A stretch of 32,415 bases of DNA from Thermoanaerobaculia bacterium (lineage in GTDB: Bacteria; Acidobacteriota; Thermoanaerobaculia; Multivoradales; UBA5704): positions 1 to 32,415 of the forward strand of contig JBJMGZ010000079.1 of NCBI GenBank assembly GCA_045807605.1, in the 5' to 3' direction. The notes under the pieces are model-generated. The model was given only the letters and a program-made list of their open reading frames with translations, was not told where the DNA came from and ran no database searches. Of the stretch, positions 16,401-21,616 are shown one piece after another. Position 1 is the first letter of the stretch. Each line of letters opens with the position of its first letter. The position numbers were made by a program, and so were the translations under genes.

Positions 16401-19400
16401 GCGAACGTGGTGCGCAGGGCCTCATGCCGCCTGACGGCCGCCGCCATGGCCGCGGCCAGCGCGGGCACGGCGAGCGGGCCGGCCAGGCGGAAGGCCCGGG
16501 CGATGTTGTAGGCGGAGGCGCCCGGGATGAGCTGGTCGAGGAACCAGAGCCGCTCCTGGGCGAAGGACAGCGGCGCGGGCCCGGTATCGCCGGGACTGCG
16601 GGCTCGCCGCCGGATCGGCGTCGCCGCCTCGATTCGCCCGCCGCGCATCGCCTCCTCGACGGCCCGCGCGAGGCCCGCGACCGTGGGCGCTTCGAACAGG
16701 GCCGACAGCGGCACCTCGACGCCGGCCGCGTCGCGGACCCGCGACAGCAGCCGGGTGGCGATCAGGGAGTGCCCGCCGAGCTTGAAGAAGTTGTCGCGCA
16801 CGCCGACCTCGACCCCCAGGACCGCACTCCAGATGCCGGCCAGCGTCTCTTCCAGCGGCGTGCGCGCAGCCCCGCTCTCCTCGCGCGCTCCCTCGCGCCA
16901 TACCGGCTCGGGCAGAGCGCGTAGGTCCACCTTGCCGTTCGGCGTGAGCGGCAGCCCGGGCAGGACGACGAACGCCGACGGGACCATGTAGGCCGGCAGG
17001 CGGTCGGAAAGGAAGCTCTCGAATGCCCCCTCCCCCACCACGTACGCCACCAGGACCGGATCGCCGTCCCGCTCCCGCACCGCCACCGCCGCCTCGCGCA
17101 CTCCGGGGCAACCGGCGAGGACGGCCTCGATCTCGCCCAGCTCGATCCGGAACCCGCGGATCTTGACCTGGTGGTCGATCCGCCCCAGGAACTCCAGCTC
17201 GCCGCCGGACCGCCAGCGGGCAAGGTCGCCGGTGCGGTAGAGGCGGCCCCCGTCCGGGTCCGGCACGAACCGCTCGGCCGTCAGGTCCGGCCGGCCGAGA
17301 TAGCCGCGCGCCAGACCAGCGCCGCCAACGCACAGCTCGCCGGGAACGCCCGGCGGCACCCGCCGCCCGTCGCGGTCGAGCAGCCGGACCGAGAGGCCGC
17401 CGGTCGGCCGGCCGATGGACGGAGCCCCTGCCCGCCCCGGCTCCACCAGGCCGGCCGTCGTGATCACCGTGCTCTCGGTAGGCCCGTAGTGGTTGACCAG
17501 CGCGAACGGGAGCGGGCGCACCGGAGCGCGGCGCAGCCGGTCGCCGCCGGTCAGCAGAGCGCGCAGCGCGAGCCCCGCCGGCACCTCCTGCTCCGCGATC
17601 TCGACGAGCGCCTCGGCCAGAGGCGTCGGCAGGAACGCGAGCGTGATCCGCTCGGCAGCCATCCAGGCCAGCAGCCGGCGAGGATCGGAGCGCGTCTCCG
17701 CCTCCGGCACGTGCACGCTCGCGCCCGCCGCGAGATAAGGCCAGACCTCCCAGACCGACGCGTCGAAAGCCGGCCCGGCCAGCATCGTGGCCCGGTCCGC
17801 CGGAGTCACCCCATACGCCTGCGCATGCCAGTCCGCCAGGTTTGCCAGCCCACCGTGCCCGACCGCCACACCCTTGGGCCGTCCCGTCGAGCCCGAGGTA
17901 TAGATCACGTAGGCCAGGTCACCCCCCGGCCCCCTCTCCCGGGCAGGCGGGCCCGGGCGGGCTGGGAGAGGGGGCCGGGGGGCGAGGCCCAGCTCCAGCT
18001 CCACCACCGCCATCGCCGCTCCCATCTCCGTCACCAGGTCCCGATACTGCGGCCGCACCACCACCGCCCGGGCCCCCGAGTCCTCGAGCAGGAAGCGCAG
18101 GCGCTCCGCCGGGTACGACGGATCGAGCGGCAGCCAGGCCCCGCCGGCCTCCAGCGCTCCCAGGGCCGCCACCACCGCCTCGGGCGAGCGCTCGGTCAGC
18201 ACCGCCACCACCGTCTCCGGCCCCACCCCGATCTCCGCCAACCGCCCGGCCAGCGCCCGCGCCTCGGCCAGAAGGCCGGCATAGCTCAGCTCCACGCCGT
18301 TGCCGGCCAGAGCGAGCGCGTCCGGCGTGCGCTCCGCCCAGGAGGCGACCTGGAGGTGCACCGGAGCCCCGTCCGCCCGGGAGACCGGGCCGTGGCCCCA
18401 GGCCTGGAGCTGCCGGCGCTCGGCCGCGGTCAGCAACGGCAGCTCCGAGATCCTGCGCCCCGGGTCCTCCACGAACGCCGCGAGCAGCGCCTGGTAGTGG
18501 GTCCACATGCGGTCGATCGTCGCCGCCTCGAACAGGTCGCCGCTGTACTCCCAGATGAACGTCATGTCCTCGGAGGCGCCTTCCGAGCCGAAGCCGAGGC
18601 GCTGCTCGGCGCGGGGCTTGGCGACCACGTTGAGGTCCGACTTGGCCGAGCCGTTGTGGCGCTCGTAGAGCTCGCCGGCGAGGCCCGCGAAGTCGAGGTC
18701 CGGCACCGGCGAGTCGTGGAAGCTGAACAGCACCTGGAAGAGCGGGTTGCGCGACAGCTCGCGGTCCGGCTGCAGCTCCTCGACGAGCTTCTCGAAGGGG
18801 AGGTCCTGGTGCGCCTGCGCCTCCAGCATGGTGCGCCGCGCCCGCGCGGCCAGCTCGCGGAAGGTCAGGCCCCCCTCCACCGCCGTGCGCAGGACGACCG
18901 TGTTGACCACCATGCCGATCATCTCTTCCAGCTCGCGCAGCCGCCGGTTCGCGATGCCGCTGCCGAGCACGATGTCCTCCTGCCCGGTGTAGCGGTAGAG
19001 CAGGGCATAGAAGGCGGACAGCGACGTCATGAACAGCGTGACCCCTTCGCGCCGGCCGGCCGCGCGCACCCCGGCGTACAGCTCCCGCGGCAGGTCGGCC
19101 CGCAGGGCGCCGCCGCGGAAGCTGTGCGTCCTGGAGCGCGGCCGGTCCGCAGCCAGCTCGAGCACCGGCGGGCTCCCCGCCAGCCGCTCCTTCCACCAGT
19201 CGAGCTGCCGGGCGAGCGCGTCTCCCTGCAGCCACCGCCGCTGCCAGAGGACGAACTCCCGGTACTGCACCGGCGGCTCGGGCAGCGGCGACGGCCGGCC
19301 TTCCCGGATCGCCGTGTACAGCTCTTTCAATTCGCGCAGGAACACGGCCAGCGACCAGCCGTCGTGGACGAAGTGGTGCTCGACGTGCAGCAGGAGGTGG

Positions 19401-21616
19401 TCGTCCTCGTCCAGCCGCAGCAGGAGCCAGCGCAGGAGCGGCAGGCGCTCGAGGTCGAACGGCCGGCGGATGTCCGCCTGGACGATCCGCAGCGCCACGG
19501 CCTCGCGCTCGGCAGGAGGCACCGCGCGGAGATCCACGACCGGCACCACGGCCGCCCACGGCTCGTGGATCACCTGCACCGGCCCGCCGTCGACCGCCGG
19601 GAACGTGGTGCGCAGCACCTCGTGGCGGCGGACGATCTCGGTGAAGGCGGCCTCCAGGACCGGCAGCCGCAGCGGGCCGCGGAAGCGGACCGTGAACTGG
19701 AAGTTGTAGGCGTAGTTGCCCGGCGAGAGCTGGTTCAGGAACCAGACCCGCTCCTGGGTGAACGAGAGCGGGATCGGCCCGGTCCGGACCTCGCCGGAGA
19801 CCAGCGGCGGCAGCTCCTCGCCGGCACCGCCGCCTTCCTCGCGCAGGCGGTCCAGGCGCGCGGCCAGGGCGGCCACCGTGGGGTGCTCGAAGACGGCCGG
19901 CAGCGGCAGGTCCACTCCCAGCTCCTCGCGCACCCGCGTGACGATTTGCGCGGCGAGCAGCGAGTGGCCGCCCAGCTCGAACAGCGAGTCGAGCGCACCG
20001 ACTCCGTCGATGCCCAGCAGCTCGCCCCAGATCCGCGCCAGCGCCTCTTGCGTGGCGCCGCGGGGCGCCACCCAGTCGTTGTCCAGCTCCGGCCGCGAGC
20101 TGCCCGGCGCCGGCAGGGCCCGGCGGTCCACCTTGCCGGTGGGGGTCATCGGCATGGACTCCAGGAAGACGAACGCCGCCGGCACCATGGCCTCGGGCAG
20201 CCGCTCCGCGAGGAACGCGCGCAGGGCGCTCACCGTCAGGGCCGGATCGCGGCGGACGACGTAGGCGACCAGGCGCTTCGCCCCGCCGTCCTCGCGGGCC
20301 GGCAGCGCCGCGGCGACCGCCGTCTGCACGCCGTCGTGCTCGCCGAGCACGGCCTCGATCTCCCCGAGCTCGATGCGGACGCCGCGGATCTTGACCTGGA
20401 AGTCGACGCGGCCGAGGAAGAGCAGGTCGCCGTCCGGCAGCCGGCGGGCGAGGTCGCCGCTGCGGTACAGCCGGGCTCCGGGATCGACCGAGAACGGATC
20501 GGGGATGAAGCGCTCGGCGGTCAGCTCCGGCCGGTTCAGATAGCCGCGCACGACGCCGACGCCGCCCAGGCAGAGCTCGCCGTCGCCTTCGCCCGCCACC
20601 GTCTCGCCGTCCTGGTCCATCAGGTGGACGGACAGGTTCTCGATCGGGCCGCCCAGGGTGGGGATCCCAGGGCCGGAGCAGAACGCGGCGGTCGCGAAGA
20701 CCGTGGCTTCGGTGGGCGCGTAGGCGTTGATCATCCGGCGCCCTCCCGTCGACCAGCGGGCCGCCGTGGCCGCCGAGCAGGCCTCGCCGCCCACCAGGAT
20801 CGAGCGCAGGCTGGGAAGCTCGTCCTCCATCCCCGCCGGCAGCGTGTCGAGGAGCGACGGCGGCAGGATCATCGTGGTGACGGCCTGCTCGCGCAGCTCG
20901 CGCCCCAGGGCCTCGCCGGAGAGCAGCGTCTCCCGCGGCGTGACCACCAGGCTGGCGCCGCAGGTCAGGGCCGTGAAGATCTCCAGCACCGAGGCGTCGA
21001 ACCCGAGCGAGGCGAGCTGCAGCATCCGGTCGCCGGGACGGACGTCCATCAGCCGGGCGCCCTCGCGGACCACGTTCACCACGCCGCGATGCGGGACGAC
21101 CACGCCCTTGGGCCGGCCGGTCGAGCCGGAGGTGTAGATGACGTAGGCGGTGTTCTCCGGCCCGACCCGGTGGGCCGGAAGCGGGAGGCCTTCCGCGCCT
21201 TGCAGGTCCTCCAGGAACAGCGCGCCGTCGGACGGGAGCAGGCCGGCGAGCGCGCGCTGCGTGAGCAGGACCCCCGGCCGGCCCGGCAGGTTGCCGCGGC
21301 GGGCGTCCTCCCAGATCCAGGCGAGGCGCTCGGCCGGATAGCCGGGGTCGAGCGGGACGTAGGCGCCGCCCGCCCGCAGGATGCCGAGCACGCCGCAGAT
21401 CATGTCGAGCGAGCGCTCGACGGCCAGGCCGACCAGCGTGTCCGGCCCGACTCCGCGGGAGCGCAGGACCGCCGCCACCCTCCCGCTCCTCTCCAGAAGC
21501 TCGCGGCAGGTCAGGCGCGCGGCGCCGAACGCCAGGGCTTCCGCCTCCGGAGTCCGCGCCGCCCGCTCCTCGATCAGATCATGGATGCAACAGGCATCCT
21601 CCAGATTCGACGACAC
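13454..21616 (-). CDS. Starter NRPS, about 2720 aa: A-T-C(ureido-forming type)-A(Leu-like)-T-C-A(Ala)-T
   Basis: The track ORF is 13454..21646. I prefer the in-frame GTG at 21616 because GGAGG (21626-21622) lies 5 nt upstream. The protein begins directly with an A domain. First C motif EHHFVHDG, second HHIVADG. Three GGHSL T domains. A codes by eye: DALILGAVFK (unassigned hydrophobic), DAWFLGHVIK (Leu-like) and DLFNNALTYK (Ala). Confidence 0.96.
17922..17982. repeat. Palindromic REP/RPE-like element (perfect 19-bp inverted repeat, 23-nt spacer) in frame inside an NRPS A domain
   Basis: Left arm CCCCCCGGCCCCCTCTCCC (17922-17940) is the exact reverse complement of right arm GGGAGAGGGGGCCGGGGGG (17964-17982). 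It translates as APRPPLPARPGPPARERGPGG immediately before [12 protein letters not shown]. Confidence 0.8.

Follow-up and report, generated by a model that had tools for sequence, protein, structure and literature searches.

The window analysed here, that is, the whole stretch of 32,415 nucleotides, is the entire contig C79 (GenBank JBJMGZ010000079.1) of the metagenome-assembled genome (MAG) of an uncultured soil Thermoanaerobaculia bacterium, phylum Acidobacteriota (GCA_045807605.1), an assembly of 5.6 Mb and 69.6% G+C that is 79% complete and fragmented into 844 contigs. Its first 21.6 kb hold a nonribosomal peptide synthetase (NRPS) encoded by three minus-strand genes, called A, B, and C below, and the subject of this analysis is the first condensation (C) domain of gene A, which carries the active-site motif reported for ureido-forming C domains. 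Gene and domain limits, including those of the adenylation (A) and carrier (T) domains, were obtained from Pfam scans of the long open reading frames (ORFs) and from core motifs, and the synthetase is laid out as follows:

13454–21646, minus strand: gene A, 2730 amino acids (aa), A1-T1-Curea-A2-T2-C-A3-T3, where Curea is the C domain in question (Pfam and motifs).
20117–21559, minus strand: first adenylation domain, A1, with core motif A3 at residue 172, A8 at 412, and A10 at 499 (motifs; code from motif anchors).
19853–20044, minus strand: carrier T1, residues 535–598, with GGHSL at residue 559 (Pfam PP-binding); it would carry the residue that ends with a free carboxylate.
18407–19774, minus strand: condensation domain, assigned to the Curea type, residues 625–1080 (best stretch for Pfam PF00668 and clade placement).
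19358–19381, minus strand: active-site motif EHHFVHDG, residues 756–763.
17297–18343, minus strand: adenylation domain A2, residues 1102–1450, code DAWFLGHVIK, Leu-like (Pfam AMP-binding).
16652–16849, minus strand (limits approximate): carrier T2, with GGHSL at residue 1624 (motifs); it would hold the ureido-dipeptide for extension.
7113–13457, minus strand: gene B, 2114 aa, C-A-T-C-A-T, with one Leu-like and one Ala-like A domain (Pfam and motifs).
1–7128, minus strand: gene C, at least 2376 aa, C-A-T-C-A-T-C, both A domains Ala-like, cut by the contig end.

The codons GAG CAC CAC TTC GTC CAC GAC GGC (19381–19358, minus strand) translate into E-H-H-F-V-H-D-G, giving E756, H757, H758, H761, D762, and G763 of gene A. 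A back-translated EHHxxHDGW pattern matched the window once, at 19355–19381 on the minus strand, and matched none of 100 dinucleotide-preserving shuffles. In the six remaining C domains of the window, the motif takes the plain xHHxxxDG form, namely LHHIVADG in gene A, LHHAVADG and MHHIVSDG in gene B, and, in gene C, motifs that include QHHIVSDG. An ordinary LCL domain is without E at position −1 or H at position +4, and both E756 and H761 are present here. With A1-T1-C-A2-T2 at its N-terminus, gene A shows the loading A-T unit and the two carriers of the Curea layout. The preliminary description of this DNA, made from the letters alone, had placed EHHFVHDG at 19381–19358 in the first C domain, had read the other C domains as HHIV(S/A)DG or HHAVADG, and had set the domain behind a loading A-T didomain; the DNA translation, the motif read-out of the window C domains, and the A3, A8, A10, and GGHSL motifs placed upstream agree with it on each point, and Pfam moved its limits for the domain (18440–19775) only slightly, to 18407–19774.

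That EHHxxHDG is a reported ureido signature, as the same description held, is stated by Yu and van der Donk (2024, ACS Cent Sci, PMC11212132), who assign the signature EHHXXHDG to ureido-generating (Curea) C domains and report it absent from all MIBiG C domains with a different function. The paper also describes mutants of the synthetase SnaA, in which E744A and H749A nearly abolished bisarginyl-urea formation, leaving it near the detection limit, H746A was inactive, and both T domains were required, so that parts are assigned to the E, the second H, and the additional H of the motif; it further describes Curea domains as close to LCL domains and annotated as LCL. According to two further reports, the ureido carbonyl of syringolin derives from bicarbonate (Ramel 2009, PMC2773804), and PppA has a first C domain that groups with the ureido-forming ones in a tree (Ioca et al., 10.1101/2020.12.15.422899).

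A scan of the EHHxxHDGW pattern over one genome per species (185,579 species in GTDB) gave at least 120 loci, numbered with the prefix L; the counts that follow refer to the 120 matches listed. Three of these were chance matches outside NRPS genes and 28 were cut by the locus edge, leaving 89 that could be classified. In 71 of the 89, A(-T) stands directly before the EHHxxHDG domain without an upstream C domain, and A-T-C-A-T at the N-terminus, as in gene A, is the majority form. Nine others begin with a C domain, like SylC, five are mid-line, with C domains upstream in the same ORF, and four are of other or unclear arrangement. According to the record titles, matches come from Acidobacteriota, Gemmatimonadota, Chloroflexota, Eremiobacterota, and Methylomirabilota, and the scan suggests that ureido-type starter units are widespread in uncultured soil phyla.

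For clade placement, 270 C domains were aligned, comprising 59 from this genome, 116 from scan loci (96 with and 20 without the motif), and 95 matches from a homologue search. The motif columns were excluded from all trees, and support is given as branch support values (FastTree; IQ-TREE "quick" with the Shimodaira–Hasegawa-like approximate likelihood ratio test, SH-aLRT). In the FastTree of all 270 rows, a branch with support 95 had 124 of the 125 EHHxxHDG rows and one EHHLLGDG (EHHxxGDG) variant on the same side; the lone motif row outside this clade was L003. In the IQ-TREE "quick" tree of 90 rows, all 45 motif rows fell on one side (support 98). A C-domain tree had been proposed in the preliminary description as a check on the ureido assignment, and, with the motif itself withheld, it groups the gene A domain with EHHxxHDG domains and not with ordinary ones. 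The clade also includes a SylC-type locus (L061), a Pseudovibrio locus (L012), and apnA-like loci of Nostoc and Microcystis, all of them reference loci identified by organism and architecture (orthologue-like) rather than the MIBiG entries themselves. L061, from Pseudomonas fragariae, has LuxR, fatty-acid desaturase, C-A-T NRPS, and NRPS genes, which is the sylA-D order given by Ramel 2009 (PMC2773804), and the Nostoc and Microcystis loci show the C-A-T-E order expected for apnA (PMC5311044). In a tblastn search against plasmids, the Pseudovibrio ppp plasmid was not among the 40 rows listed.

Database searches depended on the query used. With the isolated domain, 32 of the 120 matches listed carry the motif, 19 of them within the first 28, and the best match (79% identical) is from Thermoanaerobaculia; with the C-domain region of the whole protein, where matches are ranked by a score summed over multiple C domains, the motif was present in only 2 of the 120 matches listed. 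A PDB sequence search gave Txo2, Txo1, and other ordinary C domains as best matches, and no listed title mentions ureido or urea formation. When 272 C domains were ranked by BLASTP, the first 59 were 58 EHHxxHDG rows and the EHHLLGDG variant. The domain is 91% identical to that of L105, 48%–54% to cyanobacterial domains, 45%–46% to the ordinary C domains of the same window, 40% to the Pseudovibrio domain, and 35% to the SylC-type domain. L105 lies in another Thermoanaerobaculia MAG and is syntenic with window positions 17038–25067 at about 88% nucleotide identity, so that the gene is not an assembly accident.

Residues beyond the motif also separate the clade. A column-by-column comparison of motif and non-motif rows, from which this genome's motif rows were left out, yielded 25 discriminating positions, a feature defined in this analysis and not in the literature. 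In gene A numbering, M912 is found in 98% of motif rows versus 1% of others, which usually have a conserved Phe, and we take this column to be the Phe position of the C5 motif ("G-x-F-V-N-T"). The pair H977 (88% versus 5%) and D978 (89% versus 4%) is usually Q and N in the other rows, while W740 (83% versus 1%) and W1032 (86% versus 5%) usually correspond to A and L, respectively; the set further includes N998 and P1011. Of the 25 clade columns, the first C domain of gene A has 23, and the two other motif domains of the genome have 20 each. Nostoc domains have 18–20 and the SylC-type domain has 13, as against at most 5 in the non-motif rows used to derive the columns and 0–2 in the four other window C domains included. 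The additional clade residues (Met at the C5 Phe, an H-D pair for Q-N, and two Trp) do not appear in the portion of PMC11212132 available to us. As added markers, they could sharpen automatic annotation.

The motif, the clade, and the chain-initiating layout point to the first C domain of gene A most likely being a true ureido-forming (Curea) member, whose CO2-dependent head-to-head coupling would leave X-CO-Leu-S-T2. The motif, the domain order, the clade membership, and the intact catalytic and carrier motifs are observed, whereas the chemistry, modeled here on the SylC and SnaA schemes, the substrates, and the product are inferred. A1 would load X, probably a hydrophobic residue, onto T1, and A2 would load a Leu-like residue onto T2. 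The C domain would then join both alpha-amino groups via a carbonyl from bicarbonate/CO2, probably through an N-carboxy (Leuchs-anhydride-like) intermediate, such that X would leave T1 with a free carboxylate and X-CO-Leu would remain on T2, from where ordinary C domains would extend the chain from the Leu thioester.

Substrate preferences were read as Stachelhaus-type positions from motif anchors rather than with a prediction tool. The codes obtained were DAWFLGHVIK for A2 and DAWFLGHVVK for A4, both Leu-like, and DLFNNALTYK for A3 and for A5–A7, all Ala-like, the reference codes presumably being DAWFLGNVVK for Leu and DLFNNALTYK for Ala. For A3 and A5–A7, fixed spacing had given DLFANALTYK, and the N at position 278 appeared after re-anchoring on the TVPS motif. 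Leu had been anticipated at position 2 of the product in the preliminary description, and the extracted A2 code fits it, given the Leu code that we assume. Because the next A domain (A2) is Leu-like, the product would start HOOC-X-NH-CO-NH-Leu-Ala-..., and, read along the line, most likely HOOC-X-NH-CO-NH-Leu-Ala-Leu-Ala-Ala-Ala-..., with at least one further module past the contig end and no epimerisation (E) domain in the synthetase as seen. Because its first C domain has the published hallmarks of urea-bridge formation, the cluster is likely to produce a urea-capped peptide that is new but belongs to a familiar kind; that it serves as a protease inhibitor is a guess.

Four characterized systems come closest to gene A. 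SnaA, from the threopeptin (sna) cluster of Stackebrandtia nassauensis (PMC11212132), is, like gene A, an A-T-Curea-A-T protein with two carriers and EHHxxHDG, a likeness drawn from the published description and not from an alignment of the SnaA sequence. SnaA makes Arg-CO-Arg, after which a polyketide synthase (PKS) extends the chain and a peptide aminoacyl-tRNA ligase (PEARL) extends it at the free carboxylate (PMC11212132), whereas gene A begins a long NRPS line of at least seven modules. Pfam detected no LanB-like/PEARL ligase domain in the window ORFs, and PF04738 had no match in the 79%-complete genome, nor did it have one in the control genomes, which makes this negative weak. ApnA, of cyanobacterial anabaenopeptin synthesis, shares with gene A the loading A-T, the ureido C domain, and the second module, and its first A domain sets the exocyclic residue (PMC5311044). 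The apnA-like C domains of Nostoc and Microcystis are the nearest named relatives (48%–54% identity). In ApnA, module 2 is followed by an epimerase, giving D-Lys, and ring closure on the Lys side chain makes the product a cyclic hexapeptide; gene A differs in having no E domain, a Leu-like position 2, and a longer chain.

The lines of PppA and MbpA, which make pseudovibriamide and pseudobulbiferamide, resemble the window in their heptamodular-scale NRPS and in the order of A-T followed by a ureido C domain (10.1101/2020.12.15.422899, PMC10616845). They differ in being carried on plasmids of marine Proteobacteria and in having, in addition, a dehydrating C domain, a Cy/Ox thiazole module, and a PKS; the Pseudovibrio locus L012 belongs to the same clade at about 40% identity to the window domain. 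SylC, of syringolin synthesis in Pseudomonas syringae, has an EHHxxHDG C domain like that of the window, with the ureido carbonyl coming from bicarbonate (PMC2773804). SylC consists of just one C-A-T module, whose A and T domains serve both valines, whereas gene A has separate A-T units, and the SylC-type locus L061 is in the same clade at 35% identity to the window domain.

Several observations weigh against a ureido-forming role. In the 90-row IQ-TREE, three long-branch epimerisation-like rows stood inside the motif clade beside the SylC-type rows, an intrusion that we take to be long-branch attraction; with those three removed (87 rows), all 45 motif rows and the EHHxxGDG variant were separated from 41 of 42 others with an SH-aLRT of 97. 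The domain is also less identical to the SylC-type (35%) and Pseudovibrio (40%) domains than to the ordinary C domains of its own window (45%–46%), so that it is placed in the clade by derived residues in common and by the topology of the trees, not by raw similarity. The five mid-line loci among the 89 (L046, L048, L068, L069, and L071), each preceded within its ORF by one or two C domains, indicate that the motif can occur where the chain-reversal scheme does not fit. Most of them carry DGWT, not DGWS, and form their own subclade, and L048 has only 2 of the 25 clade columns. The sufficiency of the motif rests on the MIBiG survey of one paper (PMC11212132). The cluster itself is truncated and comes from a 79%-complete MAG in 844 contigs, the assembly line being cut because the window is one whole contig of this fragmented Thermoanaerobaculia-type MAG.

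Among other explanations, we regard as unlikely that the domain belongs to the EHHxxHDG clade and the final product nevertheless lacks an open ureido group, either cyclised to a hydantoin (imidazolidinedione) or with its first residue removed or extended. Hydantoin-type derivatives of ureidopeptides have precedents, in that some pseudovibriamides have an imidazolidinyl-dione ring (10.1101/2020.12.15.422899) and "hydantoanabaenopeptins" are named in the literature, and the gene of a secreted-looking S33-type peptidase lies 434 bp upstream of gene A. However, a dedicated tailoring gene was not detected in the window, nor a LanB/PEARL-like gene in the genome, although the controls for the latter search gave no signal either, and hydantoin-type products would still start from a ureido intermediate.

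It is less probable still that the domain is an ordinary LCL domain forming a peptide bond, with E and H incidental and a product that starts with a normal X-Leu amide. Its higher identity to neighboring ordinary C domains than to the SylC-type and Pseudovibrio domains would suit this explanation, as would the described closeness of Curea to LCL domains, as which they are annotated (PMC11212132). Yet the 23 of 25 clade-specific residues, compared with 0–2 in neighboring domains, are hard to reconcile with it, as are the clade support values of 95 and 97 obtained with the motif columns removed and the chain-initiating A-T context common to 71 of the 89 classifiable loci. A synthetase that is silent or defective in this organism and makes no product, as sequence known only from a MAG and a line cut by the contig end might allow, is just as improbable in view of open frames over 21.6 kb, intact A, T, and C core motifs, and a relative that keeps the locus at 88% nucleotide identity.

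If the domain is ureido-forming, as we favor, a recently defined enzyme class and its simple signature would extend to Acidobacteriota, which to our knowledge is a soil phylum with almost no characterized natural products. Literature searches on ureidopeptides/Acidobacteria and on Curea condensation found no acidobacterial ureidopeptide, the only relevant items being the 2024 paper and a review on sponges. The product would be a peptide with its chain reversed and a free carboxylate at its head, the feature through which anabaenopeptins, antipain-type compounds, and syringolins bind to proteases. To a specialist, this would be an expected application of the 2024 rule and no surprise.

Within the synthetase, reading frames are open throughout the 21.6 kb and the A, T, and C core motifs are intact. 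The true start of gene A is likely the ATG six codons into its ORF, and gene B overlaps the gene A stop by 4 bases. An ORF of 4448 aa over 1–13344 on the minus strand was set aside, its N-terminal half being a spurious stop-free frame of 75% G+C, with the real gene B in another frame. The continuation of gene C past window base 1 was sought with the first 21–55 window bases, which occur in no other contig of the assembly. The part of the window beyond gene A holds the following:

22081–24117, minus strand: secreted-looking alpha/beta hydrolase of the TAP-like/S33 type, 678 aa (Pfam Abhydrolase_1, Abhydrolase_4).
24223–26508, plus strand: CBM9/DUF5916 protein (Pfam).
26510–27151, minus strand: small outer-membrane beta-barrel protein (Pfam).
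27189–32414, minus strand: hybrid gene cut at its 5' end, (A)-T-KS-AT-T-TE (Pfam).

The N-terminus of the alpha/beta hydrolase resembles a signal peptide, its nucleophile motif is GVSYG, and it is extended by about 190 residues at the C-terminus. It lies between two ureido-type lines, within the region that is syntenic with L105 at 88% identity; its place as part of the cluster is unproven. The CBM9/DUF5916 and beta-barrel genes likewise sit between the two assembly lines, with no evident link to peptide synthesis.

In a six-frame scan of the genome, three of 61 C-domain motifs were EHHxxHDG, on contigs C69, C79, and C419, each after an N-terminal A-T. The right end of the window and the end of C419 share exactly 141 nt, an overlap that is unique to these two contigs and in which the reading frames agree, one of only 18 such shared ends among the 844 contigs. 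Given this unique in-frame overlap, the hybrid gene at 27189–32414 is very probably the tail of the C419 line (L124, 4407–12154), and the joined second line very probably reads A(Ser-like)-FkbM methyltransferase-T-C(EHHLVHDG)-A(Leu-like)-T-C-A-T-KS-AT-T-TE. The AT of the hybrid gene carries HAFH, which we take to be a malonyl-type motif, and a major facilitator superfamily (MFS) transporter and an amidohydrolase precede the line on C419. Much as in the threopeptin/syringolin scheme, this line would yield a short ureido-peptide-ketide. The third starter unit is on C69 (L125), a 5.4-kb contig on which an ORF at 815–5431 (plus strand) reads A(DAFLFGLVVK)-T-C(EHHFVHDG)-A...

A wider proposal, which we consider doubtful, would treat these as three ureido-initiated lines, two of them flanking the S33 peptidase, with the long line making a chain-reversed, Leu/Ala-rich peptide of at least eight residues and the peptidase acting as a target copy, in immunity, or in maturation; together they might represent the first ureidopeptide family of Acidobacteriota. 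We know of no characterized ureidopeptide of at least eight residues with such a Leu/Ala-rich composition.

Among 200 other genomes of the class that were sampled, the pattern occurred in only four, once in each, and a reversed-pattern control occurred in none. One genome of the same family, G153, has a motif match identical over 27 bases and was considered as a source of an orthologous cluster; this was rejected, with no megablast match to the window and a different domain order. In G153, the EHHFVHDG domain (L121; G153:C101:61641-68267), whose gene has about 470 residues without a detected motif before the A domain, is encoded directly after two same-strand NRPS genes.

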